Below, in pieces: positions 625-58,655 of a stretch of DNA of 64,000 nucleotides; within the stretch, counting starts at the first letter, position 1, and each line of letters starts with the position of its first letter. A program made the position numbers and the translations under genes. This DNA comes from Escherichia coli (lineage in GTDB: Bacteria > Pseudomonadota > Gammaproteobacteria > Enterobacterales > Enterobacteriaceae), in NCBI RefSeq assembly GCF_011045215.1, contig NZ_CP049201.1. One strand, 5' to 3'. A model generated the notes under the pieces. It made no database searches and was not told where the DNA came from. It saw only the letters and a program-made list of their open reading frames with translations.

Positions 625-2094
625 ATGGTTTCCGAAACTAAAACCACAGAAGCGCCGGGCTTACGCCGTGAATTAAAGGCGCGTCACCTGACGATGATTG
701 CCATTGGCGGTTCCATCGGTACAGGTCTTTTTGTTGCCTCTGGCGCAACGATTTCTCAGGCAGGTCCGGGCGGGGCATTGCTCTCGTATATGTTGATTGG
801 CCTGATGGTTTACTTCCTGATGACCAGTCTCGGTGAACTGGCTGCATATATGCCGGTTTCCGGTTCGTTTGCCACTTACGGTCAGAACTATGTTGAAGAG
901 GGCTTTGGCTTCGCGCTGGGCTGGAACTACTGGTACAACTGGGCGGTGACTATTGCCGTTGACCTGGTTGCAGCTCAGCTGGTCATGAGCTGGTGGTTCC
1001 CGGATACACCGGGCTGGATCTGGAGTGCGTTGTTCCTCGGCGTTATCTTCCTGCTGAACTACATCTCTGTTCGCGGCTTTGGTGAAGCGGAATACTGGTT
1101 CTCACTGATCAAAGTCACGACAGTTATTGTCTTTATCATCGTTGGCGTGCTGATGATTATCGGTATCTTCAAAGGCGCGCAGCCTGCGGGCTGGAGCAAC
1201 TGGACAATCGGCGAAGCGCCGTTTGCTGGTGGTTTTGCGGCGATGATCGGCGTAGCTATGATTGTCGGCTTCTCTTTCCAGGGAACCGAGCTGATCGGTA
1301 TTGCTGCAGGCGAGTCCGAAGATCCGGGGAAAAACATTCCACGCGCGGTACGTCAGGTGTTCTGGCGAATCCTGTTGTTCTATGTGTTCGCGATCCTGAT
1401 TATCAGCCTGATTATTCCGTACACCGATCCGAGCCTGCTGCGTAACGATGTTAAAGACATCAGCGTTAGTCCGTTCACCCTGGTGTTCCAGCACGCGGGT
1501 CTGCTCTCTGCTGCGGCGGTGATGAACGCAGTTATTCTGACGGCGGTGCTGTCAGCGGGTAACTCCGGTATGTATGCGTCTACTCGTATGCTGTACACCC
1601 TGGCGTGTGACGGTAAAGCGCCGCGCATTTTCGCTAAACTGTCGCGTGGTGGCGTGCCGCGTAATGCGCTGTATGCGACGACGGTGATTGCCGGTCTGTG
1701 CTTCCTGACCTCCATGTTTGGCAACCAGACGGTATACCTGTGGCTGCTGAACACCTCCGGGATGACCGGTTTTATCGCCTGGCTGGGGATTGCCATTAGC
1801 CACTACCGCTTCCGTCGCGGTTACGTATTGCAGGGACACGACATTAACGATCTACCGTACCGTTCAGGTTTCTTCCCACTGGGTCCGATCTTCGCATTCA
1901 TTCTGTGTCTGATTATCACTTTGGGCCAGAACTACGAAGCATTCCTGAAAGATACCATTGACTGGGGCGGCGTAGCGGCAACGTATATTGGTATCCCGCT
2001 GTTCCTGATTATTTGGTTCGGCTACAAGCTGATTAAAGGAACCCACTTCGTACGCTACAGCGAAATGAAGTTCCCGCAGAACGATAAGAAATAA
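625..2094 (+). CDS. lysP: Lysine-specific permease (APC family amino acid transporter)
   Basis: 489 aa ORF, highly hydrophobic multi-helix protein; length and position next to cirA match K-12 LysP. Confidence 0.9.
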   Translation: MVSETKTTEAPGLRRELKARHLTMIAIGGSIGTGLFVASGATISQAGPGGALLSYMLIGLMVYFLMTSLGELAAYMPVSGSFATYGQNYVEEGFGFALGWNYWYNWAVTIAVDLVAAQLVMSWWFPDTPGWIWSALFLGVIFLLNYISVRGFGEAEYWFSLIKVTTVIVFIIVGVLMIIGIFKGAQPAGWSNWTIGEAPFAGGFAAMIGVAMIVGFSFQGTELIGIAAGESEDPGKNIPRAVRQVFWRILLFYVFAILIISLIIPYTDPSLLRNDVKDISVSPFTLVFQHAGLLSAAAVMNAVILTAVLSAGNSGMYASTRMLYTLACDGKAPRIFAKLSRGGVPRNALYATTVIAGLCFLTSMFGNQTVYLWLLNTSGMTGFIAWLGIAISHYRFRRGYVLQGHDINDLPYRSGFFPLGPIFAFILCLIITLGQNYEAFLKDTIDWGGVAATYIGIPLFLIIWFGYKLIKGTHFVRYSEMKFPQNDKK

Positions 2095-2113
2095 GTTTCT
2101 CCCTTCCTTGCTA

Positions 2114-2141
2114 AGCCCTCTCAACCGAGAGGGCTTTTTCA
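2114..2141 (+). terminator. Rho-independent terminator downstream of lysP
   Basis: Hairpin agccctctc-aacc-gagagggct followed by a TTTTT run. Confidence 0.6.
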
Positions 2142-2189
2142 ATTCCATTTCCCTTACAAATCATGCGGATATAAAATTTAACATTTGGA

Positions 2190-2218
2190 TTGATAATTGT
2201 TATCGTTTGCATTATCGT
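2190..2218 (+). promoter_or_regulatory. Putative Fur box(es) in the cirA promoter
   Basis: tgataattgttatcgtttgcattatcgtta resembles overlapping GATAATGATAATCATTATC-type Fur sites, about 170 bp upstream of cirA; cirA is classically iron/Fur regulated. Confidence 0.5.
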
Positions 2219-2385
2219 TACGCCGCAATCAAAAAAGGCTGACAAATCAGAGGCTGGTCCGGCTTTCTGGGATGATCACCTGCATACAAATAAGTCCACC
2301 GCGATGCTGCCGTACGCAAGGGGACGTGAAGAAGATGTGAGCGATAACCCATTTTATTTTCGTAGTTACCTCATGGAGATATGGA

Positions 2386-4365
2386 ATGTTTAGGTTGAAC
2401 CCTTTCGTACGGGTCGGGCTGTGTTTGTCCGCTATTTCTTGTGCATGGCCTGTGTTAGCGGTCGATGATGATGGCGAAACGATGGTTGTCACTGCATCTT
2501 CCGTTGAACAAAACCTTAAAGATGCACCCGCCAGTATCAGCGTCATTACCCAGGAAGACCTGCAGCGAAAACCGGTACAGAATCTGAAGGATGTCCTCAA
2601 AGAAGTGCCTGGCGTACAACTGACGAACGAAGGGGATAACCGTAAGGGCGTTAGTATTCGTGGTCTGGACAGCAGCTACACCCTGATTCTTGTCGACGGT
2701 AAACGCGTTAACTCCCGCAATGCCGTCTTCCGCCACAATGATTTCGATCTGAACTGGATCCCGGTCGATTCCATCGAACGTATTGAAGTGGTCCGTGGCC
2801 CGATGTCGTCGCTGTACGGTTCCGATGCGCTCGGCGGTGTAGTGAATATCATCACCAAAAAAATCGGTCAGAAATGGTCGGGTACCGTTACCGTCGATAC
2901 CACCATTCAGGAACATCGCGATCGCGGTGATACCTATAACGGTCAGTTCTTTACCAGTGGACCATTAATTGATGGTGTGCTGGGAATGAAAGCCTACGGC
3001 AGCCTGGCAAAACGTGAAAAGGATGACCCGCAAAACTCAACGACCACCGATACCGGAGAAACGCCGCGTATTGAAGGATTCTCCAGCCGCGACGGCAATG
3101 TCGAATTTGCCTGGACACCGAATCAAAATCACGATTTTACTGCCGGATACGGTTTCGACCGTCAGGATCGTGATTCCGACTCGCTGGACAAAAACCGCCT
3201 GGAACGCCAGAACTACTCCGTCAGCCATAATGGGCGTTGGGATTACGGCACCAGCGAACTGAAATACTACGGTGAGAAAGTCGAGAACAAAAACCCTGGC
3301 AACAGCAGCCCGATAACTTCCGAAAGCAATACGGTCGACGGCAAATACACGTTGCCGCTGACGGCGATTAATCAGTTTCTCACGGTTGGCGGTGAATGGC
3401 GTCACGACAAACTTAGCGATGCGGTGAACCTGACCGGGGGAACCAGCTCCAAAACGTCTGCCAGCCAGTACGCGCTGTTTGTGGAAGATGAATGGCGGAT
3501 CTTCGAGCCGCTGGCGCTGACGACCGGCGTGCGTATGGACGATCACGAAACCTACGGTGAACACTGGAGTCCGCGTGCCTACCTGGTTTATAACGCCACC
3601 GACACCGTAACGGTGAAAGGGGGCTGGGCGACGGCATTTAAAGCACCTTCTCTGTTGCAACTTAGCCCTGACTGGACGAGCAATTCCTGCCGTGGCGCAT
3701 GTAAGATTGTGGGTAGCCCGGATCTGAAACCAGAAACCAGCGAAAGTTGGGAGCTGGGGCTTTACTACATGGGTGAAGAAGGCTGGCTGGAAGGGGTTGA
3801 ATCCAGCGTTACCGTTTTCCGTAACGATGTGAAAGATCGTATCAGCATCAGCCGTACGTCTGACGTCAATGCTGCACCAGGCTACCAAAACTTTGTCGGT
3901 TTTACAGCGAACGGTGTGCCGGTATTTAGCTACTACAACGTTAACAAAGCACGTATTCAGGGCGTGGAAACCGAGCTGAAAATTCCGTTCAACGATGAAT
4001 GGAAACTGTCACTCAACTACACCTACAACGATGGTCGTGATGTCAGCAACGGCGAAAACAAACCGCTATCCGATCTGCCGTTCCATACCGCTAACGGTAC
4101 GCTGGACTGGAAACCGCTGGCGCTGGAAGACTGGTCATTCTATGTTTCTGGTCACTATACCGGGCAGAAACGAGCCGACAGCGCGACGGCTAAAACACCG
4201 GGCGGTTATACCATCTGGAATACCGGCGCGGCCTGGCAGGTGACTAAAGACGTCAAACTGCGCGCAGGCGTGCTGAACCTTGGCGACAAGGATCTCAGTC
4301 GTGACGACTACAGCTATAACGAAGACGGACGTCGTTACTTTATGGCAGTGGATTATCGCTTCTGA
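2386..4365 (+). CDS. cirA: TonB-dependent outer-membrane receptor for catecholate siderophores / colicin I receptor
   Basis: 659 aa ORF with N-terminal signal peptide, TonB-box-like ETMVVTAS, and C-terminal ...[10 protein letters not shown] ending in an aromatic residue typical of OM beta-barrels. Confidence 0.9.
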
Positions 4366-44952: not shown

Positions 44953-44990
44953 AATAAAAAAACCTGCTGGTGAGGCAGGTTCTTTTATTT
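44953..44990. terminator. Bidirectional rho-independent terminator in the yehK-yehL intergenic region
   Basis: 7-bp stem aacctgc/gcaggtt flanked by an A run upstream and a T run downstream, so it gives a U tract on either strand. Confidence 0.5.
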
Positions 44991-45276
44991 ACTATTTTCA
45001 GGCCTAACACCACAGCCTGTGCAACATCGTGTTCCAACGAACGAATTATAACCACGGCTGGACCCCGTTGCAATTAAGATAATGAGATTTATAATCCAGA
45101 CCGTTGGGACGTTGCGCCGGATCGAACCTATTTCAAGTCCTGGCTACCGGACGGGTGGTGCTGCAGGTGGTGCCCTGATCCGGAGTGCAACATCGTGGTC
45201 CAACATACGTAAACCAGTATCGACAGGCAGTGTAAGGGTAAGGTGCTGGTGTTGCGCTCCTTAATAAGGAGAGCGG

Positions 45277-45366
45277 ATGGACTCGCTGACACAAAAGTTA
45301 ACCGTGCTCATTGCTGTACTGGAGCTATTAGTAGCTCTGTTACGTTTGATTGATTTGTTGAAGTAA
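45277..45366 (+). CDS. Unannotated 29-codon hydrophobic/amphipathic peptide ORF (candidate small toxin-like membrane peptide)
   Basis: ATG preceded by SD aaggag (5 nt spacing); MDSLTQKLTVLIAVLELLVALLRLIDLLK; putative promoter ttgcaa-N16-tataat at 45068..45095; hairpin aaggggga-N7-tccccctt at 45389..45411. Confidence 0.35.
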   Translation: MDSLTQKLTVLIAVLELLVALLRLIDLLK

Positions 45367-45853: not shown

Positions 45854-48800
45854 TTAATGGAAAATGACGTCAGCTGCGCTTAACGCCTCACTCAAATCAA
45901 ACACATCGAGTTCGGCAAAAGTGACGGATTTATTGTTACGGTAAACCCGAAGAGAATGGAAGCTCATCAGCGCTTTGCTATCAGCACTGTAGTGGTTAAA
46001 ACCGGGTGAAAACTTAAGGACCAGCCGGTACTCACCCAGGTCATAGACAAATGCGTCCTCATAGCCTGACTCCCAGCCTTTGTATCGCATTCCCATAAGT
46101 TGCCCAACGGTAGCGGATTTACCTTCCCAGCGAGTCAGGCTGTTACTGGTTGACTCGTCAGGTGTGAGCAGCACCGTGCGGCGCGACAACTGGCGAAAAG
46201 GCGGCATAATTTCGTAATCGGCAAAAAGCTGTGCAAATTCACTGCGCATTTCTACTGTCATTTCTAACGGGTGGGCAATGCCAATCAGAGCGTCCGCAGG
46301 CAGGTCAATTGGCTCATCTTGCGCATTGCAGAACTCCCCCTCTGCGGCCACACGAAAGGCGTTGAGTAAACAACGCGGTTCATTTGCCGGATAAACCCCC
46401 CATATTAATCGCTGGGTAACCAGACGGGTAAAGGGATGATTAACAAACAGAGAATGAAAATCTGCCAGCGACCAGCGTCGGGTGGTACGTAGGGCCGTTT
46501 CAAGACGCGGGAGCAGGTTTTTGCTCACCTGAGTGGCATCTTTTTTTAGCCCTTTTAGTTGGGCCAGTGCCTCGGGCGCTTTCAGTTGATCGTCATCGGC
46601 GCGCAACCGGGGAACGCTTTTCTGGCGAACGTTTTGCTGATCAAAGATAATCGGGTTGAGGTTTTCATCGAAGCGAACGGTAAACTGCCGGGGACCAAAA
46701 TCAAAAATCAACGCCTGCGGATCATCAAGGCCAAGGGTTGGGACTAATCTGTCCGCTAGCTCTTCCTGGCTTAGCCCGCGATTTTCTGCGACCACCTGAA
46801 GAAATTCCGCCGCGTTATCACGTAAGGGGCGGGATTTAGCCCGTTGCGATATATGATGCAGCTGTATCAGCGCCATATCATTATTCATCAGGGTAAGGAT
46901 GTTCAGGCCGCTGACAGCACGGGCAGATTTGCCTTCTTGTGGCCAGGCGAGGATCTGTGTCGTCAGATCCCGTGCCGTGCTTTCGTCACCAAAGAGACTT
47001 AACGCCAGAAATGCCCAGTTGTCTTTTGCGGGGGCACCAGCTTGTTGCCACGCAGTGAAGAGATCCCAGGCAAAAGCTGCCAGCGTTTGTGGCTGGCAGA
47101 ACGTTTTCAGTTGTTCCAGCCCGCTATAAAAACGTCCCCCCTGGGTAAAGCGCAGCATTTCGCCGAAAATTTCCAGAGCGTCATCGGTAACAGTTTGATT
47201 ATTAGTGATAAGGCGCGGCCTGGACCACATTTGCGGATGCCAGAAATCAGGGGCTTTTGGAATGCGTGCCGGGTAAATCTCTATTGGACTCTGTTTAAGT
47301 AATTGTTCCAGGGCAGGCCATAGATCTGTACGCTGCCAACGATTGGCTAAAGTTTGTAGCAATTCGCCATGCCCATGTTCGTAAAGTAAACGCAGGGCAA
47401 GTAATGCAGCTTCGCTTTTATCGCTGGATTTGGTGAAGACAAGAGGGATAAGTGCAGTAGCCGTATGTTCCGGCCAATGTAAAATCCACTGGCGAGCCAG
47501 ATTACGCTGGCCCGCAAAACGGTGCCAGACGCGGGCAATGGGCAGGGCCAGTTCTGTTGCGCCGAAATTTAAAATTAACGGAAATGTTTCTTTTGGACGA
47601 TGTGAAAAAGCCAACAGCAGACCTGGTAGCGCATCCAATCCGAGGATACTGAGAAAATAGTCCTCACCCGCGAACAGATGCTTTTTCTCATTGATACGCA
47701 GCCAGAAGGTCAAAGCTATCTCACGCGGCAACTGTGCCAATAAATACAGGTTCCAGACACTCTTTTCCGGACGATAACGTGAGTAGTTGTCATTTTCCCA
47801 TATGTTAATTAACGCTTCTACGTGACCACTGCGAAGCGCCTGTTCTGCTAATGGTGCTTCCGGGGAGTTCCAGCCATTCAGGATCTCTTCAACCCGCCCC
47901 TGGTAGTAATGCCACTCAACAATGAGTGAATTGCGTGCAGCATCCAGTTTTCCGGGGAGTATATAATTCAAAAACAGCCATACATCATCCCCAAAACCCA
48001 GTTCCTGTAATACAACTCGCCCACTTTTTTGTTCCATGCGTTCCGCAAGAGATTCCGTGCTGAAATAACGGGCAGGCTCAGTGGCGGCAAGCCTCTCTCG
48101 TTCGCCTGGTTGCCAGTAAACTTGCGGAGTTAATTCGAGCCGTGCCAAATCAAGACGTGGAGCTGTCATTTTTTTCTTACTACGCCACGGTGGTGAAACG
48201 AGGATTTCAGGCAGATTGCTGTTATCGGTGCCATCAATAACCGGTTTTGGCAGTGCCGATAAATAACTCTTCAGCACTGCCCTGGCTTGAGTACTTAACC
48301 ACGGCATCACTTCTGCTGCCAGTTGTGGCTGCGATGCCATCAGCGTTTGTAACAGCGTACGCCAGTATTCATCGCGTGCTTTTTGCTGTGCAGGCAGCTT
48401 TTTGTCTTCGATGATTGGATAACCAGGGCGGGCTGGTGGTTCTGTTAACGCCAGCAGTTCTGCCAGTGCGGCGAGCGTCGCATGGGGGAAGTTTTTATGG
48501 TATTTAGCTACACGTTGCAGGCTGGGTTTGTTTTTATCAGCCACCAGTAGCAAGGTGCGGATGACTTGCGGATGGTTAATTTGTACCAGCAGACTGCCGC
48601 AATCTTCTTTATAGGCATACATCGCGAGGCGCGGAATGGCTGCCAGTCCTTGTTCGCGCAAAAGGGCGGCGCAGGCCGCGTAGCCGAAGTGGTTTTCATG
48701 CGACATGTAGCTGGCTTCTCGATCGCTAAATATATCCTGGCTCCAGTAGTGTTCGAGTTTTCTCACCGCTGTGGGGTCATTAGCTACAACTTTTAACCAC

Positions 48801-49486
48801 TCCTTAGAATGAAAATGAGTTCGCGGGCATTCAAGGCCTACCAACTCATTGGCTATTTCTGGTTTTTCCGGGAGGATCAGCGCAATAAAAGGGCGGCGAA
48901 CTTTGGTTATTCCTGGTAGTGCGGCAATGAGTTTGTCGGCGCAACGCTGCCAGCAGCTTTCCTCTGCCAGAGAGAGGTGTTTACGCAGTCGGAGATCGAA
49001 TTCGTTATAGGTTTCTGAGCGATAACCATAGCCATAGTCCTCGTTCTGATACTGCAATGTGACTACCAGAGGATCACTCTCATAACACCGTGCAATAAAC
49101 TGGCGTGCAATCACCACCTCAGTCGCATATTCCAGCCCCTCTTGTTGGACGATTTCGTCGAGCAACTGTTGGCTGTCATTTTGCGCGATACAGGCTAGCG
49201 CCGCCATTGTCCGGGCCGGGATTGAGGGTTTGTGTTCGCCGATCAAGTTGATGGCCTGCGTGATGGCGGACTGCCACTCCAGTGAAAAATTTTCATAACG
49301 CCAGACAATGTTTTTTTTCTTCTCAGCTTTTTGTAGCAATTCATCACCCAGTGTCTGAATGATGCTTTCAGTGATAACAGGCACTGGTTCGCCCGGCCAA
49401 TTGCGATGGCTGAGTGGTGTTTTACCCTTTTTATATTTCAGTTCCAGTTGGGCGTTATCAGCCAGCCACGGTAATTCCTTGTCCAT
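45854..49486 (-). CDS. yehI: Giant DUF4132-family protein (MolR paralog lacking the N-terminal WGR segment)
   Basis: 1210 aa; C-terminal ~450 aa aligns by eye with the C-termini of the two upstream paralogs. Confidence 0.8.
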   Translation of the reverse strand: MDKELPWLADNAQLELKYKKGKTPLSHRNWPGEPVPVITESIIQTLGDELLQKAEKKKNIVWRYENFSLEWQSAITQAINLIGEHKPSIPARTMAALACIAQNDSQQLLDEIVQQEGLEYATEVVIARQFIARCYESDPLVVTLQYQNEDYGYGYRSETYNEFDLRLRKHLSLAEESCWQRCADKLIAALPGITKVRRPFIALILPEKPEIANELVGLECPRTHFHSKEWLKVVANDPTAVRKLEHYWSQDIFSDREASYMSHENHFGYAACAALLREQGLAAIPRLAMYAYKEDCGSLLVQINHPQVIRTLLLVADKNKPSLQRVAKYHKNFPHATLAALAELLALTEPPARPGYPIIEDKKLPAQQKARDEYWRTLLQTLMASQPQLAAEVMPWLSTQARAVLKSYLSALPKPVIDGTDNSNLPEILVSPPWRSKKKMTAPRLDLARLELTPQVYWQPGERERLAATEPARYFSTESLAERMEQKSGRVVLQELGFGDDVWLFLNYILPGKLDAARNSLIVEWHYYQGRVEEILNGWNSPEAPLAEQALRSGHVEALINIWENDNYSRYRPEKSVWNLYLLAQLPREIALTFWLRINEKKHLFAGEDYFLSILGLDALPGLLLAFSHRPKETFPLILNFGATELALPIARVWHRFAGQRNLARQWILHWPEHTATALIPLVFTKSSDKSEAALLALRLLYEHGHGELLQTLANRWQRTDLWPALEQLLKQSPIEIYPARIPKAPDFWHPQMWSRPRLITNNQTVTDDALEIFGEMLRFTQGGRFYSGLEQLKTFCQPQTLAAFAWDLFTAWQQAGAPAKDNWAFLALSLFGDESTARDLTTQILAWPQEGKSARAVSGLNILTLMNNDMALIQLHHISQRAKSRPLRDNAAEFLQVVAENRGLSQEELADRLVPTLGLDDPQALIFDFGPRQFTVRFDENLNPIIFDQQNVRQKSVPRLRADDDQLKAPEALAQLKGLKKDATQVSKNLLPRLETALRTTRRWSLADFHSLFVNHPFTRLVTQRLIWGVYPANEPRCLLNAFRVAAEGEFCNAQDEPIDLPADALIGIAHPLEMTVEMRSEFAQLFADYEIMPPFRQLSRRTVLLTPDESTSNSLTRWEGKSATVGQLMGMRYKGWESGYEDAFVYDLGEYRLVLKFSPGFNHYSADSKALMSFHSLRVYRNNKSVTFAELDVFDLSEALSAADVIFH

Positions 49487-49495
49487 GCTCTTTCC

Positions 49496-52400
49496 TTATT
49501 CAAACAGGGCTTCAATATCGTTAATTAGCTCGCTGGCGGTGATGGCATCGAGTACGGAGAACAGCGCTTCCTGTGTTGAATTACTCCCCCAGCCATAGCT
49601 TTCCGCTTTGCCTTCCCATAGCCACAGCTTGCTTAAGAGCTGCTCAGCGCTAAGTTCGGCTGGTGACATACCCACTGCAAAGCCTTCATCGATTTCCATG
49701 ATTAACGACCAGCGGCCCAGAGGTTTGATCATCCAGCCGATCCAGCCTCCATCCTGTGGTTCGCCCTTTATCCAGCCTTTATTCGCCAGCCCCATTACCC
49801 GACCGCTCGGGCATTTTCTGCCTGCCCAGCGGGTCAGTTCGCTGGCGTTGCGCTCGGCTTCTGTCAGGGCGTAACTGTTACGGTCAAGCTGGCGGAACGG
49901 TGGTAACAGTTCGTAGTCGGCAAAAAGCTGACCAAAGGCGGCAGCATCCGTCGGTGATATTTCCAGAACGTGAGGAATACCAATAGAGATATCGCCTTCC
50001 GGCAGGGTGAAAAGATCATCGTCAGCGGTGCTGTAGCTGTTATCTTCCGCTACGCGAAAGCAAGCCTGCAGCTGGTTTTCGGCGCTATAAACGCCCCAAA
50101 TCAGACGGCGGGTTAAGTGGCGAACCAGCGGATGCTCAACCAGGAAGAGCTGAAAGTTTTCCGGTGACCAGCGGCGACGCAGGCACATGGCGGATTCCAG
50201 CCTTGCTACCTGCTGGGCGGCGACGGTACGCGCATCTTTTTTCAGCAGTTTGTAGCGGTTAACAGCATCGTTCGCCTGTGATTCATCATCGCTTTTGTTT
50301 GGTTTGGGCAGGTCTTTCAGACGGCTGCCAGAAACATCACGCACAAACGGTTTTAAGGTTTCATCAAAGCTGACGGTGAACTGGCGTGAGCCGAAATCCA
50401 GCAGCAACGAACCGTTATCATCCAGACCGAGATCCGGTGCTAACCGATCTTCAAGCTCTGCCACCGTGAGTTCGCGGCTTTCGGCAATGTCGGCAATTTT
50501 TTCTTTTGCCCGCTCCTGTAATGCTTTGAATTTCAGTTTCTGGGCAATACCGTTAAGCTGCATCAGGGCGATATCACTACCGATAGCGGCGAGAATATCC
50601 AACCCAACGGTGGCGCGTTTATGCTGGGATTCACCAGGCCAGGCGCGTATTAATGGCGTCAGTTTGCGGGCGGTGTCATCGTTACCAAGAACGCCTAACG
50701 CAGTGAACGCCCAACTCTCTTTCGACGGTGCGCCCGCAGTCAGCCAGGCGGTAAACAGATCCCAGGCAAATTCAGCCAGTGAGTCGGCGGTACAGGCATC
50801 TTTCACCTGCAATAATCCCGGATACAGGGCCTCTTCCTGAGGGAAGCGGAGCATTTCACCGAGGTGCTGGAGTGCGCTATCTGGCAGTACCTTGCTGCTA
50901 TTTTTGAGTTTCGGGCGAGTCCATAATGGAGGTTGATAAAACAACGGTAAAGGGGGGATTTTCGCCGGGTATTTACCCACAGGACTGTTGTCGTTATTTT
51001 TATTTTGAGTTTCCCAGGGCGGCGAGACTAGTACCATTGGTAGAATTTCTGAGTTTGCAAAATCTTCATTGCGACTATTCAGCAATTGCTGACATTGTTG
51101 CAATAAATTTACCGCTTGCGACGATAATCCGATGACTAATTTTTCGACCAATAAAGGATTTGCATTAAGTAATGAAACCAGCAACGTATGTTTGCGTTTA
51201 TCATCTTTTTTTACCAATGCTTCGGCTAATGCCGCTATCGTGGCAGAAGGAAAATTTTCGGCACTTTTTATTAGTCGTTCATAACAGCGTTTATTAGTAT
51301 CGGCGGCTTCGATGAGTGCCGTAATGGCCAACGGATGATTAATACATTTCAGTACGTCACCGCAATTATCTTCTTCAGCATAGGGAGCCAGGCGAGCCAG
51401 TGCCGCTATACCTTGCTCCCGTAATACCGTAGCTGACCAACTGGCACCATAGGTGTTAAATACATCAATGTATTGATAGTTCTCCAGTATTTCGAGCGTG
51501 AATGGATCTGTCGCTACCAGTTTCAACATTTCAAGTTGTGGAACATCTGCGACCTGGTGTAAACGATGTACGATCTCATGGGCCACTTCGGGTATTTCTG
51601 GCATTAAAATGGCAATTAACGGTTGGCGATAGAGTGATATATCTGGTAACGCAACGAGTAATTTTGCAATGCAATTTTGCCATACTTCTTCTTCTGCTAG
51701 TGATAAATGTTTACGCAGACGTAAACTAAATTTGTCGTTATTCCTTCTATAACTGTCCTTGCTGCTATCTGCATAATTAATAAAGAAAGTCAAATGTTCA
51801 TCTTTATAGTCAAAATCGAAATCAATTTGCCACCAGAAGATGACAGTTTCAGTTGCGTATTCGATACCGAAGGTGCTTACAATTTCATCCAGCAACTCGG
51901 ATGAGGTTTCATCATTCCAGCCCTGACAAAAACATATTTCCAGAAAAGTAAGTACCGCCATAGTACGCGCGGGTATCTTAGTCTTTTGGGCCTTAATTAA
52001 GCTGATTGCCTGGCTAATCGCATCAGCCCATTCATCAGAGCATGAGCTGTAATCGAAAGTCAGATTTTTATAATAATGATAAGTACGATTTGCCAATCGG
52101 GAAATTAAATTTTGTTTCTCGGGTTTGGTTGGTTTTTTTACTGGCTCTCCCGGCCAAAGGCGGTGGCTGAGGGCATGGCGGGCAATATTCGGGGGAAGAA
52201 TAATGGGATCGTTGTCTGCCAGCCAGGGTAAACCATTAGTTGCTGCCTGGCGATTTATTGAGGCTTTTTCCTCTGTGACCAGGACTTTCTTTGCTGAGGC
52301 ATCATGTGAGTGAGCGTTAGCGTCTACTTGCTCCACATACCCCTTCTTCACCTTCTCCGCAATCAGCTTCAGTGCTGCTTTTTCCGCCGCCGCAGTATCT

Positions 52401-52528
52401 GCAAAGCTTTTTACCTGACTTTGCCCGTTGGTACCGACTTTACCCCAGTTAATATGCAGCTCGTTTCCCTGCTGCTCCACCGCCCAGAATTTATGTGATT
52501 TTTCGTCCTGATAAATATAGGTTTTCAT
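49496..52528 (-). CDS. WGR-domain / DUF4132 protein, middle MolR-family paralog
   Basis: 1010 aa; N-terminal 65 aa nearly identical to the upstream paralog; C-terminal half ~70% identical to it; central part AT-rich and divergent. Confidence 0.75.
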   Translation of the reverse strand: MKTYIYQDEKSHKFWAVEQQGNELHINWGKVGTNGQSQVKSFADTAAAEKAALKLIAEKVKKGYVEQVDANAHSHDASAKKVLVTEEKASINRQAATNGLPWLADNDPIILPPNIARHALSHRLWPGEPVKKPTKPEKQNLISRLANRTYHYYKNLTFDYSSCSDEWADAISQAISLIKAQKTKIPARTMAVLTFLEICFCQGWNDETSSELLDEIVSTFGIEYATETVIFWWQIDFDFDYKDEHLTFFINYADSSKDSYRRNNDKFSLRLRKHLSLAEEEVWQNCIAKLLVALPDISLYRQPLIAILMPEIPEVAHEIVHRLHQVADVPQLEMLKLVATDPFTLEILENYQYIDVFNTYGASWSATVLREQGIAALARLAPYAEEDNCGDVLKCINHPLAITALIEAADTNKRCYERLIKSAENFPSATIAALAEALVKKDDKRKHTLLVSLLNANPLLVEKLVIGLSSQAVNLLQQCQQLLNSRNEDFANSEILPMVLVSPPWETQNKNNDNSPVGKYPAKIPPLPLFYQPPLWTRPKLKNSSKVLPDSALQHLGEMLRFPQEEALYPGLLQVKDACTADSLAEFAWDLFTAWLTAGAPSKESWAFTALGVLGNDDTARKLTPLIRAWPGESQHKRATVGLDILAAIGSDIALMQLNGIAQKLKFKALQERAKEKIADIAESRELTVAELEDRLAPDLGLDDNGSLLLDFGSRQFTVSFDETLKPFVRDVSGSRLKDLPKPNKSDDESQANDAVNRYKLLKKDARTVAAQQVARLESAMCLRRRWSPENFQLFLVEHPLVRHLTRRLIWGVYSAENQLQACFRVAEDNSYSTADDDLFTLPEGDISIGIPHVLEISPTDAAAFGQLFADYELLPPFRQLDRNSYALTEAERNASELTRWAGRKCPSGRVMGLANKGWIKGEPQDGGWIGWMIKPLGRWSLIMEIDEGFAVGMSPAELSAEQLLSKLWLWEGKAESYGWGSNSTQEALFSVLDAITASELINDIEALFE

Positions 52529-52540
52529 TGTTAAATCCTT

Positions 52541-55500
52541 TTAATCAAACAGTGATTCAATGTCGTTAATCAGCTCGCTGGCGGTGATGTCGTCGAGCAT
52601 GGAGAAAGTGGGTGAGGATTGTTTACCATAGCGATCATAAGGGGCGGTGATTTTTACGCTTTCGACAGGCAGCAGGTCGCTATACCCCGTTTCGCCATAA
52701 ATTAATGAAAAAGGTTCCGTTTCAAGTTCGAGAGCACCATAAGGGGTAGATTTGCGCATCGCATAGACGCTGCCGCTTTCTTCCAGACGTTGCCAGCCTC
52801 GGCGTTCCAGCCCGACAATGCGTCCGGCCTGGCAGAGACGTCCGTTCCAGCGTGACAATTCATGGACATTACGTTCGTTATCAGCAAGGTGGTAACTACC
52901 ACGTTCGAACTGTTGGAAAGGGGGAAGCAGTTCGTAATCAACGTAAATTTGCCTGAATGCAGCGGCGGATTCAGGGGGGATTTCCAGCACATGCGGTATA
53001 CCGATGTTTCCTGCTGGCAGCGTGAATAACTCATCCTGCGCATCGCTGTAAGTGCTGTCTTCTGCCACGCGAAAACAGGTGATAAGAGCGTTTTCATCGT
53101 TATAACCCCCCCATAACAGCCGTCGGGTTAAGTGACGTACCAGCGGATGCTCCACCAGAAACAGGCGGAACTGCTCTGCCGTCCAGCGTCTGCGCTGGCA
53201 CATAGCCTGTTCCAGACGGGTAATTTGCTGGCTGGCGATAGCACGAACATCTTTTTTCAACTGTTTGAAGAGATTAACTGCGTCAGTTGCCAGTGTTTTA
53301 TCATCGCTCTGGTTTGGCTTAGGTAAATCTTTCAGGACTTTGCCGTTTGCATCGCACACTACAGGTTTTAAGGTTTCGTCAAAACCAACGGTGAATTTGC
53401 GGGGGCCGAAATCCAGTGTCAGCGAGCCACTGCTATCAAGCCCTAAATCTGGAGCCAGGCGGTCTTCCAGTTCAGCCATAGTCAGCCCACGGTTTTCAGC
53501 AACTATGTTGATTTTCTCGCGGGCATGTTCCTGTAATGCTTTGAATTTAATTTTTCGCGCGATGCCATTAAGCAGCATTAGCGCAACATCGCTGCCAATA
53601 TCAGCTAATACATCCAGCCCGGACACCGCCCGTTTATGCTGGGATTCCCCAGGCCAGGCGCGGATAAGCGGGGTTAATTTACGCGCGGTGTCGTCATTGC
53701 CTAAAATCCCAAGCGAAGTAAATGCCCAGTTTTCTTTTGCGGGTGCGCCAGCTTCTGTCCAGGCGGTATACAGATCCCAGCCAAATTCAGCCAGTGATTC
53801 GCGGGTGAAGATTTCTCTAATGATATCCAGCCCAGCGTAGGCGGTAATGTCGCGAGGAAAGCTCAGCATAGTGCCGAGGTGGCGCATAGCGTCATCTGAC
53901 AGAGGCAGGTTGTTACTTTTAAGCCGTGGTCTGCGCCACAAGGTGAACTGATAAAAGCCGGACAGTGGGGCGATTTTAGCGGGATATTCTTCCAGTGGGT
54001 CGCTATCGAACAATGTTGCCAGCGCAGCTAAAACATCAGGTTGGTTGTATCCCTGGGCGATTTCCTCAATCGTTTCTCGCTGGTTTAAATTCACCAGCAG
54101 ACGAAGCGCCTGGCGGGCACAATCACGATCTTTTCCCTGTTTGCCCAGGGCCACAGGAAGTAGCCCGGCGGCGGCATGGCGTGGGTAGTCAGTTAGCCAG
54201 TTTCGCGCATCTTCATAAGACATTTTTTTCTGTAGCTGTTGCGCCATCGGTAAGGCCAGTTCACTGACACCGAGGAAGAAGGTGAAGAAGCACAGGCGTC
54301 GTGGATTACGTTGCAGACAGGTCATAAATGCAGGTATGGCGGCGCTACCAAAAATTGCCAGAATATTTTCCTCACCAGAGTAGTTATCTTCTTTGACTAT
54401 CTGGTTAAGAAAAGAAATGGCCTGTTGACCAGGCAGGTAACAGAGGGCCATGAGATCCCAGCTTTTGTATGCATTGTTATGGTATTGCGCAAATTCAGCA
54501 TTGAGTGCTGGAAAATCGAAGCGTAGCAGGGCATCAACGGCGCTTTGTGGGGCCGGAATTTTTTCGTATATTTTCTCTCCGCTTTCCCGCCATTTTTCAA
54601 AACCAAGATGCCACAGTATTTGTTGCTCCGGTGTAAGCGGTATTAATTGTTTCTCCCAGCTTGCTTTTTTCATCGGCGGCAGGTCGGTAAACAATGTTTG
54701 TTTTGTCGCCTGCTGTTGGGCTATTTGCTGGAAGCGGGTGACAAGGTAAGTACGGGTTAGTCTTTTGGCAATCTCGGGAGTGACATCAGAAACAGAAGGA
54801 ACTGGAAGCACAGGAAGATCAAACACAGGCGTATTTTTCTTTTTCTCTTTGGTCATCCAGGGCGGCGAAACAAGCAGTTGTGGCAACATATCCGCAGTGG
54901 CGTATTCACACACTTCAGTCACAGGTTGCAGGCGACATTCAGATAAGATGCCAGCGGCTTTGGCATTCACCCAGGGAATGACGTCGCATACTAACTCTGG
55001 CGTGGCGGTAATCAGTTTGACAAGCGCTTTACGCCACTCTTTATCTTCATGTATTGCCAGCAAAGTAGCATAAGCCGCAATAGCCGCAGCGGGATGCTTT
55101 TGACTGGCCTTGCTTAAGTATTCCAGGTGCTTTTTCTTACCAATTACACCGAGGATCAGAATTTGAATCGCATCCGGGTGATTAGTTTTCCATAGCCATT
55201 TGACAAGATTTTCAGTCTCGCTGATGCGTTCGAAGAGATAAGTGGGATTGTCAGAATGGTCTTCCGTAAACTCAAGAAGTATCCGGCTTACACCGCGCAC
55301 CCCATTATTTGCCAACAACATTGCCAGATAAGCGCGAAAATTACGAAAATCACGATACAACGGTGGGAAGTCGTATTTTTCCACTGTACTCAGAGCAGTA
55401 TCATCGGTTATCACCAGTCTTAACCAGGCCATCGCCGGGACGTTTTGGTCTGCATAGCGTAGAGCTATAGCATGGGCGATATCCGGGCGTTCAGGGAGCA

Positions 55501-56350
55501 GTAACGCCGCAAAAGGTTGCCGTGCGGGGGATAGCGTCGGAATGGCGGTGAGTACTTTATCTACACAGCGTTGCCACTCATCTTCTGAAGCGAGTGAAAG
55601 ATGATGACATAGACGTTGATGCCAACTAGGTAGCGATTCTGCTTCGTGATTAGGTGGAATGATGGTGGTTACTGCGCCTTTTACTGGTTTATATTTGAGT
55701 TGAAGGGCAAAAAGGGCGATTTCAACGGCGCTTTCCAGACCACAGCGAATGACTAAGTCATCGACCAGTTCATCTGCAGAGTAAGAGTTCCAAAAACTCC
55801 AGAGCAATGCTGCATCAGATTGCGCACTCCCTGTCTGTTGATTATCCAGAATTCGCCTTTGTAACTCAGCAAAAGCCTGCTGCCAGTTTTCAGGATAAGA
55901 GCGGTAATTGTTGTCGGGATCATATGCCCTGGTGTTATCTGCAATACGCTTCCATATCTCACCGTCTTTGCGCAGATAATTGATCTCTCTGGGGCGAGAG
56001 CGATGAGGAAAAGCAAATCGGTTAATATCGTCAGTTACCGGAATAACTGCATCATCAGCCAGCCACGGGCGTTGGTTTTTACTCTCAGGGGAAGATTCAA
56101 CTTCAGGAGTGGCTTTGGTGATGGGGGAGATATGCACGTTTGCTGAAGCATTTTCCACATAGCCTTTTTTCGTTTTCTCTGCGATCAGCTTAAGCTCCGC
56201 TTTTGCCGCTGCCGCAGCATCTGCAAAACTTTTTATCTGGCTTTGCCCTTTGGTGCCAACTTTTCCCCAACTGATATGCAACTCGTTTCCCTGTTGCTCC
56301 ACCGCCCAGAATTTATGTGATTTTTCGTCCTGATAGATAAAGTGTCTCAT
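52541..56350 (-). CDS. molR: WGR-domain / DUF4132 protein, intact MolR-like
   Basis: 1269 aa uninterrupted ORF starting MRHFIYQDEKSHKFWAVEQQGNELHISWGKVGT... (WGR-like); lies between metG and yehI, where K-12 carries a molR pseudogene as I recall. Confidence 0.75.
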   Translation of the reverse strand: MRHFIYQDEKSHKFWAVEQQGNELHISWGKVGTKGQSQIKSFADAAAAAKAELKLIAEKTKKGYVENASANVHISPITKATPEVESSPESKNQRPWLADDAVIPVTDDINRFAFPHRSRPREINYLRKDGEIWKRIADNTRAYDPDNNYRSYPENWQQAFAELQRRILDNQQTGSAQSDAALLWSFWNSYSADELVDDLVIRCGLESAVEIALFALQLKYKPVKGAVTTIIPPNHEAESLPSWHQRLCHHLSLASEDEWQRCVDKVLTAIPTLSPARQPFAALLLPERPDIAHAIALRYADQNVPAMAWLRLVITDDTALSTVEKYDFPPLYRDFRNFRAYLAMLLANNGVRGVSRILLEFTEDHSDNPTYLFERISETENLVKWLWKTNHPDAIQILILGVIGKKKHLEYLSKASQKHPAAAIAAYATLLAIHEDKEWRKALVKLITATPELVCDVIPWVNAKAAGILSECRLQPVTEVCEYATADMLPQLLVSPPWMTKEKKKNTPVFDLPVLPVPSVSDVTPEIAKRLTRTYLVTRFQQIAQQQATKQTLFTDLPPMKKASWEKQLIPLTPEQQILWHLGFEKWRESGEKIYEKIPAPQSAVDALLRFDFPALNAEFAQYHNNAYKSWDLMALCYLPGQQAISFLNQIVKEDNYSGEENILAIFGSAAIPAFMTCLQRNPRRLCFFTFFLGVSELALPMAQQLQKKMSYEDARNWLTDYPRHAAAGLLPVALGKQGKDRDCARQALRLLVNLNQRETIEEIAQGYNQPDVLAALATLFDSDPLEEYPAKIAPLSGFYQFTLWRRPRLKSNNLPLSDDAMRHLGTMLSFPRDITAYAGLDIIREIFTRESLAEFGWDLYTAWTEAGAPAKENWAFTSLGILGNDDTARKLTPLIRAWPGESQHKRAVSGLDVLADIGSDVALMLLNGIARKIKFKALQEHAREKINIVAENRGLTMAELEDRLAPDLGLDSSGSLTLDFGPRKFTVGFDETLKPVVCDANGKVLKDLPKPNQSDDKTLATDAVNLFKQLKKDVRAIASQQITRLEQAMCQRRRWTAEQFRLFLVEHPLVRHLTRRLLWGGYNDENALITCFRVAEDSTYSDAQDELFTLPAGNIGIPHVLEIPPESAAAFRQIYVDYELLPPFQQFERGSYHLADNERNVHELSRWNGRLCQAGRIVGLERRGWQRLEESGSVYAMRKSTPYGALELETEPFSLIYGETGYSDLLPVESVKITAPYDRYGKQSSPTFSMLDDITASELINDIESLFD

Positions 56351-56490
56351 TCTGCATCCCTGTAATTTTATCCAGTTAAATGCAGATGCTACCAGTATTT
56401 ATGCGGGTTAGAGAGAGACAAAATCGCAAGAAAACAACTTTAGGAATTTATAAAGAAAAGGCGCTGTCGATGCAGCGCCTTGAAGGGGGA

Positions 56491-58524
56491 TTATTTCACC
56501 TGATGACCCGGTTTAGCACCAGCATCCGGGCTTAGCAGGAAAATATCTTTCCCGCCAGGACCGGCAGCCATCACCATGCCTTCAGAGATACCGAAGCGCA
56601 TTTTACGTGGTGCCAGGTTAGCCACCATAATGGTGTGACGACCAATCAGTGCCTGCGGATCCGGGTAAGCAGAACGAATGCCGGAGAAGACATTACGCTT
56701 TTCGCCGCCGAGATCCAGCGTCAGGCGTAGCAGTTTGTCAGAACCTTCAACAAACTCTGCGTTTTCAATCAGCGCCACGCGCAGGTCAACTTTGGCGAAG
56801 TCGTCAAAGGTGATGGTTTCCTGAATCGGATCATCTGCCAGTGGGCCAGTAACTGGCGCGGCAGCTGCTTTCACTTCTTCTTTAGACGCTTCCACCAGTG
56901 CTTCAACCTGCTTCATATCGATGCGGTTATATAGCGCCTTGAACGGATTCACTTTGTGGCCCAGCAGCGGTTGCTGGATACCATCCCAGGTCAGTTCCGT
57001 ATTGAGGAATGCTTCTGCACGCTCGGTCAGTTTCGGCAGTACCGGCTTCAGGTAAGTCATCAGCACGCGGAACAGGTTTATGCCCATCGAGCAAATTGCC
57101 TGCAGGTCAGCATCGCGGCCTTCCTGTTTCGCTACCACCCACGGAGCCTGTTCATCGACATAGCGGTTAGCCAGATCAGCCAGCGCCATAATTTCGCGCA
57201 CTGCTTTACCAAATTCGCGGCTTTCCCACGCTTCACCAATCACTTCAGCGGCATCAGTGAAGGTTTTGTACAACTGCGGGTCAGCCAGTTCGCTTGCCAG
57301 CACACCGTCAAAACGCTTGTTGATAAAGCCCGCATTACGAGAGGCCAGGTTAACCACTTTATTAACGATATCGGCATTCACGCGCTGAACGAAATCTTCC
57401 AGGTTGAGATCGATATCATCAATGCGCGAAGAGAGTTTCGCAGTGTAGTAGTAACGCAGGCTGTCGGCGTCAAAATGATTCAGCCAGGTGCTGGCTTTAA
57501 TAAAGGTACCGCGAGACTTGGACATTTTCGCGCCGTTCACCGTCACATAGCCGTGAACAAACAGGTTGGTCGGCTTGCGGAAGTTGCTACCTTCCAGCAT
57601 TGCTGGCCAGAACAGGCTGTGGAAGTAAACGATATCTTTACCGATGAAGTGGTACAGCTCGGCGGTGGAGTCTTTCTTCCAGTATTCATCGAAGCTTACG
57701 CTATCGCCGCGCTTGTCGCACAGATTCTTGAAAGAACCCATATAGCCAATCGGTGCGTCCAACCAGACGTAGAAATATTTGCCCGGCGCGTTCGGAATTT
57801 CAAAACCGAAATAAGGGGCATCGCGGGAGATATCCCACTGTTGCAGGCCAGATTCAAACCACTCCTGCATTTTATTTGCCACCTGCTCCTGCAACGCACC
57901 GCTGCGGGTCCATGCCTGCAGCATTTCGCTGAAAGAGGGCAGATCAAAGAAGAAGTGTTCAGAATCACGCATTACCGGGGTGGCGCCAGAAACCACCGAT
58001 TTCGGCTCGATCAGTTCAGTCGGGCTGTAGGTCGCACCGCAGACTTCGCAGTTATCGCCGTATTGATCCGGGGATTTACATTTCGGGCAGGTGCCTTTCA
58101 CAAAACGGTCCGGCAGGAACATGCCTTTTTCCGGATCGTACAGCTGAGAGATGGTGCGGTTTTTAATAAAACCGTTTTCTTTCAGGCGAGAGTAGATAAG
58201 TTCTGACAACTGGCGGTTCTCTTCGCTGTGCGTCGAGTGATAGTTGTCATAGCTGATGTTAAAGCCTGCGAAATCAGTCTGATGCTCCTGACTCATTTCG
58301 CCAATCATCTGCTCCGGGGTGATACCAAGCTGCTGAGCTTTCAGCATGATCGGTGTACCGTGGGCATCGTCGGCGCAGATGAAGTTGACCTCGTGGCCGC
58401 GCATTCGCTGGTAACGGACCCAGACATCAGCCTGGATGTGCTCCAGCATATGGCCGAGGTGGATTGAGCCGTTAGCGTACGGCAGTGCGCACGTCACCAG
58501 AATTTTCTTCGCGACTTGAGTCAT
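56491..58524 (-). CDS. metG: Methionyl-tRNA synthetase
   Basis: Class I HIGH motif ([11 protein letters not shown]), KMSKS motif, zinc knuckle CPKCK...CEVCG, C-terminal tRNA-binding domain; 677 aa from internal start MTQVAKK.... Confidence 0.9.
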
Positions 58525-58655
58525 AGTAGGCATTACTTCTTAATAGTGAAAAGGGGTTAGATAGTACCAAATGGGAAAATGTTAAGTAAGTACTTCTCTA
58601 TATTCTTCAGGTAAACTATCAGCTGATGGTTTATCTATACAAAAAAGGAGTCGGG

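Follow-up and report, generated by a model that had tools for sequence, protein, structure and literature searches.

How does one gene come to have ends that closely match those of its counterparts in other strains, and a centre that hardly resembles them? This question is raised by a gene at 49496..52528 in a 64,000-nucleotide (nt) stretch of Escherichia coli DNA (contig NZ_CP049201.1, assembly GCF_011045215.1), which we call the window. The gene is the middle one of three large tandem genes. An original prediction, made from the sequence alone, described it as a mosaic, with ends like those of molR and an AT-rich central 1.2 kb that suggested cassette exchange or horizontal replacement of a variable domain. 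We consider it likely that the middle gene is an allele of molR (yehH), an SOS-regulated gene for a WGR / alpha-solenoid / DUF4132 protein, and that molR is a multi-cassette mosaic in Escherichia in which recombination in the flanks swaps ancient solenoid cassettes.

A divergent core between molR-like ends

The open reading frame (ORF) is real. It encodes 1010 amino acids (aa) on the - strand, matches the RefSeq coding sequence WP_164476465.1 and is 100% identical in sequence to E. coli strain PapM-32-1. Its AT-rich centre is also borne out. In 300-nt windows, the GC content is 0.36-0.46 over about 50900-52100, compared with 0.50-0.58 in 49550-50900. The core segment measures 0.38-0.43, the 3' part 0.54 and the whole window 0.507. 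GC at third codon positions (GC3) is 0.31-0.43 in the core and 0.53-0.62 outside it. The AT-rich string quoted in the original prediction maps to 51106-51149.

Identity to molR also changes sharply along the gene, and neither profile is uniform. We used the molR gene of strain J3 for comparison, the core of which is 99.8% identical to that of MG1655. The middle gene matches J3 molR over nt 1-202 (89% identity) and over its last 1,477 nt (93.7%). The 1.36 kb between the matched ends contain only patches at 64-70%. A two-breakpoint maximum chi-square analysis of the same pair placed the breakpoints at gene nt 201 and 1648, corresponding to window positions 52328 and 50881. The two genes differ by 11% in nt 1-201, by 44.8% in nt 202-1648 and by 4.7% in the last 1.39 kb. 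The maximum chi-square is 634, and the highest value in 200 permutations is 22.6. Sliding-window identity tables agree with this mosaic. The divergent core is about 1.45 kb long (50881-52327), slightly larger than the 50950-52150 proposed at first.

The breakpoints define three segments, all on the - strand. The conserved 5' segment (gene nt 1-201, 52328..52528) codes for the WGR domain and is common to all molR alleles and to g1, the paralog upstream of the middle gene. It is 82-100% identical in nucleotides among 19 g1 and position-2 genes, position 2 being the slot upstream of yehI. The AT-rich divergent core with a short linker (gene nt 202-1648, aa about 68-549, 50881..52327) belongs to the type that we call A4. 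Over this central 1.45 kb the protein is only 46% identical to canonical molR. The conserved 3' segment (gene nt 1649-3033, 49496..50880) codes for a helical region and an alpha/beta domain with DUF4132, and the conserved 3' part is 93-100% identical in amino acids to canonical molR. Compared with K-12-type molR, the 3' segment has a synonymous divergence (dS) of 0.166 and a ratio of nonsynonymous to synonymous divergence (dN/dS) of 0.09; this dS is similar to that of the neighboring metG (0.137). Overall, the middle gene falls short of K-12-type molR by 762 nt (1010 aa vs 1264 aa). Most E. coli genomes align only to its last 1,393 nt (query 1641-3033), at about 95%.

The metG-yeh region is reversed in the window and reads metG (56491..58533), g1 (52541..56350), the middle gene, yehI (45854..49486), yehK, yehL and yehM, all on the - strand. 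g1 encodes 1269 aa with WGR and DUF4132 and is an extra family member, which K-12-type loci do not contain. yehI is the third tandem paralog (1210 aa) and has DUF4132 without WGR. The gaps between the three large genes are only 12 nt (g1/middle gene) and 9 nt (middle gene/yehI). In K-12-type loci such as that of J3, one 3,795-nt gene is located between metG and yehI. The middle gene is orthologous to this gene by its location downstream of metG and immediately upstream of yehI, together with the identity of the flanks. g1 instead resembles the first of the two long genes of strain elppa9 (87% identity). Slot and flank identity therefore indicate that it is the middle gene which corresponds in position to canonical molR, and that g1 is an additional paralog.

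The original prediction had taken the gene at 52541..56350 for molR, and the proper reference is the canonical molR of other strains. Measured against that reference, the ends do closely resemble molR. The description was overstated for g1, to which the middle gene is 84% identical over nt 1-197 and about 70% identical over 916 nt of the 3' half, with 86% over the last 66 nt. The centre shows little resemblance to either gene, its amino acid identity to g1 being about 36%. g1 is easily taken for molR since it follows metG.

Discrete cassette types at one locus

To describe the variation at this locus, we aligned 11 position-2 genes and numbered them by J3 nt. Segment A (about 200-1320) occurs in four types, which are mutually 45-67% identical in nucleotides. 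A1 is found in J3, LWY24 and MS20658, plus a diverged form in elppa9. A2 is found in 2017C-4173W12, and A3 in E700025 and DETEC-P1056. A4 is found in the window strain, O157:H7, ETEC1716 and Escherichia sp. E1V33; its core is 41-47% identical in amino acids to A1, A2 and A3. All four types diverge from a common point at the end of the WGR domain, the first ~200 nt being shared. Inspection of the junctions showed that the divergence of every type begins right after '...GGGTATGTGGAGCAAG'. An A1 allele with an internal deletion was also seen (P0046).

A second segment varies separately. Across segment B (1320-1620), identity between the long alleles is 80-94%. Segment C (1620-2060), which has boundaries of its own, occurs in no fewer than three types, and the two variable segments are found in several pairings: A1+C1 (J3), A1+C3 (MS20658, P0078), A2+C2 (2017C-4173W12) and A3+C2 (E700025). 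A4 alleles have neither segment C nor the adjoining ~260 nt, and they lack the ~250-aa C/D1 module of the long alleles. Beyond about nt 2060 (nt 2320 for A4) the alleles share a conserved 3' end of 1.4-1.7 kb, which is 90-99% identical in all of them up to the stop codon. Among the 11 alleles, the flanks are 83-99% identical in nucleotides compared with 45-67% for the cores. The other cassettes are also lower in GC than their flanks (A1 0.455, A3 0.45 and C 0.44-0.49, compared with 0.55 in the conserved 3' part), so low GC is a property of the variable region and not of A4 alone.

The four core types account for nearly all complete E. coli genomes. A1, the type of K-12, is found in 4,084 of 5,426 genomes, A2 in 745, A4 in 409 and A3 in 156. 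Their total is 5,394, with a median of one copy per genome. The data show that the solenoid-coding core has been replaced, across the species, by several discrete alleles, with the flanks conserved. The population pattern supports the cassette exchange that was first proposed; replacement from a donor lineage is unproven, no donor having been found in any collection searched. dN/dS is 0.22-0.39 in the variable segments and 0.08-0.13 in the conserved ones, about a threefold difference.

Structure prediction indicated what the cassettes encode. WGR was identified at aa 7-69 (Pfam PF05406, E 1.4e-18) and DUF4132 at aa 734-919 (PF13569, full model 1-179, E 8.6e-52). PDB 2ra8 matches the WGR domain both by profile (E 2.6e-22) and by fold; the profile search against PDB sequences returned WGR only. 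An AlphaFold2 model from a 44-sequence alignment has a mean predicted local distance difference test score (pLDDT) of 86.6. In this model, a predicted WGR domain (residues 1-65) and a predicted disordered linker (70-98) precede stacked helices at residues about 100-500, which correspond to the variable core. They are followed by a predicted linker (500-550), a conserved helical region (550-695) and an alpha/beta domain with DUF4132 (700-1010). pLDDT is mostly 85-95 across aa 100-500, and 93.8 for the model of the C-domain. With the full model, Foldseek found the WGR domain and otherwise only generic HEAT/ARM solenoids (karyopherins, Cand1) with weak E-values. The core models as a HEAT/ARM-like alpha-solenoid.

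The A4 allele is old. Escherichia sp. E1V33 shares the three-gene array, with a 1010-aa gene between g1 and yehI, and the breakpoints are the same. Its 1010-aa gene is 92% identical in nucleotides to the middle gene overall, and metG is 93.7% identical. The A4 core differs by 4% between the window strain and O157:H7, and by about 8% from E1V33. Over 1,440 nt of core, comparison with E1V33 gave dS 0.25, nonsynonymous divergence (dN) 0.057 and dN/dS 0.22; dN/dS of the 3' part is 0.08. The core dS is near that of metG (0.33), so the core has resided in Escherichia for roughly the time since the two species split. The 90%-identity protein cluster has 1,063 members; the 15 listed include 12 intact proteins of 1010 aa and a fragment from E. 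albertii. Together, the E1V33 architecture, the divergence values and the intact cluster members indicate that the A4 allele is old, intact and functional, under purifying selection, and not a product of decay. By the same comparison the replacement is ancient and not recent.

The core types themselves are deeply separated. Orthologous yehI genes of E. coli and another enterobacterial genus (locus L013, Logan SRR13694752) are 58% identical, and metG is 80% identical in nucleotides. The A3 core is 61% identical to molR of that genus and 54% identical to A1. By these figures the core lineages are as deep as enterobacterial genera, and the cassettes are ancient. The locus of this genus (L013 1114-11165) is a syntenic three-gene array, in which a short form of 900 aa comes first, then a molR-like gene (1241 aa) and a yehI-like gene (1198 aa). 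The short form, at position 1, has no recognizable WGR domain and no C/D1 module. It suggests that short forms arose more than once in the family.

Probable recombination at the locus and the origin of the core

Paralogs at this locus also recombine with each other. We found g1 in 1,643 of the 5,426 complete E. coli genomes (about 30%), in identity bands of 80 to 100%. Its own alleles are highly variable, and two types share only 68-78% identity over a block of about 800 nt. We defined g1-diagnostic sites as those separating g1 from position-2 genes in three-gene loci. In single molR genes of the K-12 type, g1-diagnostic bases extend from nt 5 to nt 78-141 and give way to position-2 bases at about nt 146-168, and the switch points differ slightly among strains. 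This was found at L002 6599-6800 (strain J3), L010 and L011, compared with window 52328-52528 and 56150-56350. The succession of g1-type and position-2-type bases in single genes indicates that K-12-type molR is a g1::molR chimera, in which a WGR-WGR crossover would have deleted the g1 body. The three-gene array of the window strain, E1V33 and the other genus is probably the older state.

We propose that whole cassettes pass from one chromosome to another by homologous recombination in the conserved flanks. Such movement would allow deeply diverged cores to persist inside flanks that are nearly identical within the species. Through the same WGR segment, recombination between tandem paralogs would have removed the g1 body and formed the K-12-type two-gene locus. 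As to the cause, the solenoid probably serves for binding and would be subject to diversifying or balancing selection; this is the weakest-supported step of the scheme. Conversion of the core by a paralog was considered as well. When 11 position-2 alleles were compared with 19 g1/yehI alleles by blastn, no match of at least 78% was found outside the 5' 200 nt, and this source was rejected for the panel.

An AT-rich segment with sharp boundaries could also have been imported from an unsampled bacterial lineage and inserted in molR through its conserved ends. The core GC of 0.42 compared with 0.54 in the flanks, and the low GC3, are what import would predict. The amino acid identity of the core to any other cassette is at most 47%, deeper than the divergence of yehI orthologs between genera, and the affinity of A3 to molR of another genus, nearer than to A1 or A2, makes movement of cassettes between genera plausible. 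However, searches with the core gave no foreign donor in any collection. Among 1.84 billion representative proteins, HMMER found only 105 relatives, none more than 50% identical outside Escherichia; the best match outside the A4 type is a canonical molR (45%). A word-indexed search of 5.8 billion protein clusters returned relatives at 87-89% in Escherichia only, and a scan of one genome per GTDB species matched only Escherichia sp. E1V33. The phage search gave no match. Ten plasmid records matched. Nine of these, several of chromosome size, are E. coli sequence in which the same yeh-locus genes are present, and the remaining one is an Iodobacter homologue with 22% identity. Of the traits of a foreign segment, the A4 core has the atypical base composition, and it has neither a closer donor or mobile-element relative nor near-identical recent copies. 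The reduced GC of the other cassettes and the closeness of the core dS to that of metG in E1V33 also argue against import. We regard it as unlikely overall, and recent foreign import is disfavored by the lack of a donor and the age of the allele.

The short length of the A4 allele could point to a fusion of tandem paralogs, in which a single crossover, unequal or illegitimate, put the 5' half of a lost fourth paralog in front of the 3' half of molR, with loss of the sequence between. The 3' junction would then be the sole true breakpoint, and the 5' similarity would reflect conservation of WGR throughout the family. The 762-nt difference and the absence of the C/D1 module exactly at the 3' junction fit this account, and the WGR segment, being conserved in all paralogs, marks no specific exchange. 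Recombination between tandem paralogs is documented by the K-12-type chimera, and short forms have arisen independently (the 900-aa L013 member and the A1 deletion allele P0046). Yet neither the panel genomes nor the database matches include a full-length gene that combines an A4-type core with a 3' end of its own, and the A4 core sits in the slot of A1-A3 and shares their 5' boundary. A fusion of this kind, which we find improbable, bears on the origin of the allele only and is compatible with later cassette-like exchange. Degeneration under relaxed constraint would also produce AT-richness and divergence. g1, the middle gene and yehI are all disrupted in O157:H7 493/89, the gene has a frameshift in ETEC1716, a disruption is reported in K-12 (PMC3950696), and dN/dS of the core is above that of the 3' end. 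But the 1010-aa ORF is intact in the window strain, E1V33 and many isolates. A dN/dS of 0.22 at dS 0.25 over 1,440 nt, the confident helical model and the falling of the divergence into four discrete classes, not a gradient, exclude decay of the core, to which we give almost no credence.

Exchange of ancient cassettes within Escherichia is the reading that we prefer, and several points weigh against it. The typing panel is small (11 genes), and the population counts are megablast identity bands, not a phylogeny of each genome. The core types are as divergent as enterobacterial genera, and an old import between genera could be their source instead of a long-lived polymorphism. A core dN/dS well below 1 fits relaxed constraint as well as patchy positive selection. 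O157:H7 strain 493/89 has only pseudogenes of the three paralogs, a frameshift interrupts the A4 gene both there and in ETEC1716, and the molR of K-12 is disrupted (PMC3950696). Such frequent inactivation argues against a strongly selected function in many lineages.

Inactivated loci were found at L005 9201-19649 (O157:H7 493/89), L008 13008-16039, L003 10489-14181 and L009 1-10660. In elppa9, a deletion has fused yehI to yehM. In Ecol_AZ146, the gene is truncated by an IS26/blaCTX-M-15 transposon. The same kind of chromosomal insertion in the metG/DUF4132/yeh region has been reported for ST131 (TnMB1860) (PMC9334617).

The variable cassettes could also be specificity determinants, and the SOS-induced g1/molR/yehI array a polymorphic sensor family in an undescribed system of conflict with phages or mobile elements. 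Cassettes would then be kept at intermediate frequencies by negative frequency-dependent selection, WGR would read DNA damage or foreign nucleic acid, and frequent pseudogenization would reflect the cost of the system. We offer this only as a tentative, rather doubtful extension. A PADLOC-DB 2.0 scan of eight yeh-locus proteins gave only a marginal match to WGR alone (E 0.0047), and NCBIfam gave only WGR-level and generic AAA/VWA matches under the cut-off. A conserved partnership with yehLMPQ (MoxR / DUF5682 / VWA / SWIM) was considered and is not general, two distant homologues being solitary without such neighbors.

Related systems, promoter and neighboring loci

The closest relative of the middle gene is canonical molR (yehH; the K-12 pseudogene molR_1-3). 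Both occupy the same slot, metG ... yehI-yehK-yehLMPQ, and both have the same WGR N-terminus and DUF4132-bearing C-terminal third. The upstream promoter region, with a LexA-like box, is probably shared as well. They differ in that the K-12-type gene follows metG directly, as a g1::molR chimera, and the middle gene is second in an array of three. molR is a textbook LexA-regulated gene, and its K-12 copy is a broken chimera. In strains with three genes, the name molR assigned by position after metG lands on the wrong paralog.

The mosaic can be likened to other variable loci. It is of the fliC kind, with conserved ends and a variable centre, here in an uncharacterized SOS gene. fliC, which determines H antigens, has conserved N- and C-terminal coding ends and discrete, deeply divergent centres at one locus. 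Its central types are exchanged through recombination in the conserved ends and are older than the species, as may be the case for molR. Unlike fliC, molR is predicted to encode a WGR-solenoid protein of the cytoplasm and no surface antigen, so that host immunity is no obvious selective agent; molR also has two independently varying cassettes and recombining tandem paralogs. The hsdS genes of type I restriction-modification resemble molR in having variable modules between conserved recombination substrates and differing combinations of two modules. However, there is no relationship in sequence or fold, no methylase or restriction partner gene is present, and the yeh proteins have no PADLOC match. 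STAND/Avs-type immune proteins are likewise large, with a helical-repeat region that varies and other domains that are conserved. In molR, by contrast, no NTPase or effector domain was recognized and no defense annotation was found, and its distant homologues are solitary genes in housekeeping-type neighborhoods.

Mosaic genes with conserved flanks are well known, and in evolutionary terms the molR pattern is unsurprising and fairly ordinary. Natural E. coli hold four roughly half-divergent versions of one domain and a present-or-absent paralog, all on shared ends. The variation of the cassettes points to the part of the protein that likely contacts a variable partner. The natural alleles are ready-made allele swaps for experiments.

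An imperfect LexA-like box, CTGG-N8-ACAG (CTGGATAAAATTACAG), is located at 56360..56375 on the - strand, 10-25 nt upstream of the start codon of g1 and not upstream of the middle gene. The strict pattern CTGT-N8-ACAG does not occur in the window. A consensus scan found no terminator-like site on the - strand in either short intergenic gap. The box probably marks a shared SOS promoter region, from which the three-gene array would be inducible as a unit and the middle gene co-transcribed with g1. molR counts among the genes of the LexA regulon (PMC6590174), and BglJ-RcsB activates it (PMC3950696); we take both modes of regulation from the K-12 literature. A putative role in molybdate metabolism, from which the name derives, goes back to a 1990 genetic report through its citation in PMC7824862 and PMC8533742, and the sequence shows no feature that bears on it. 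Our literature searches returned no description of a cassette polymorphism of molR/yehI, and found only regulation, the ST131 transposon insertion and the neighboring zorO locus.

The other genes of the locus are also variable. yehI of the window is 97% identical overall to that of J3, and other strains have patchy blocks at 75-88%. These blocks are discrete: nt 1-800 are at 80-88% in O157:H7, nt 1200-1400 at 75% in Ecol_AZ146 and MS20658, and the 3' third holds 94-99%. The divergent blocks of g1 and yehI (69-88% identity) are less extreme than the core types of the middle gene. The synonymous divergence of metG between the window (56491-58533) and a K-12-like strain (L002 4425-6458) is unusually high, with dS 0.137 and dN/dS 0.005, so the raised diversity reaches past the DUF4132 genes. 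By conjecture, the divergence of metG may be tied to the nearby rfb recombination hot region.

Between yehK and yehL, at 44956-45031 (-) and 45277-45366 (+), is a toxin-antitoxin pair of type I, made up of an OrzO-P antitoxin RNA (Rfam RF02083, 99.9 bits) and a 29-aa ZorO-like ORF (MDSLTQKLTVLIAVLELLVALLRLIDLLK). The pair corresponds to the z3289/z3290 locus, which has been described for O157:H7 and is not in MG1655 (PMC2887945).

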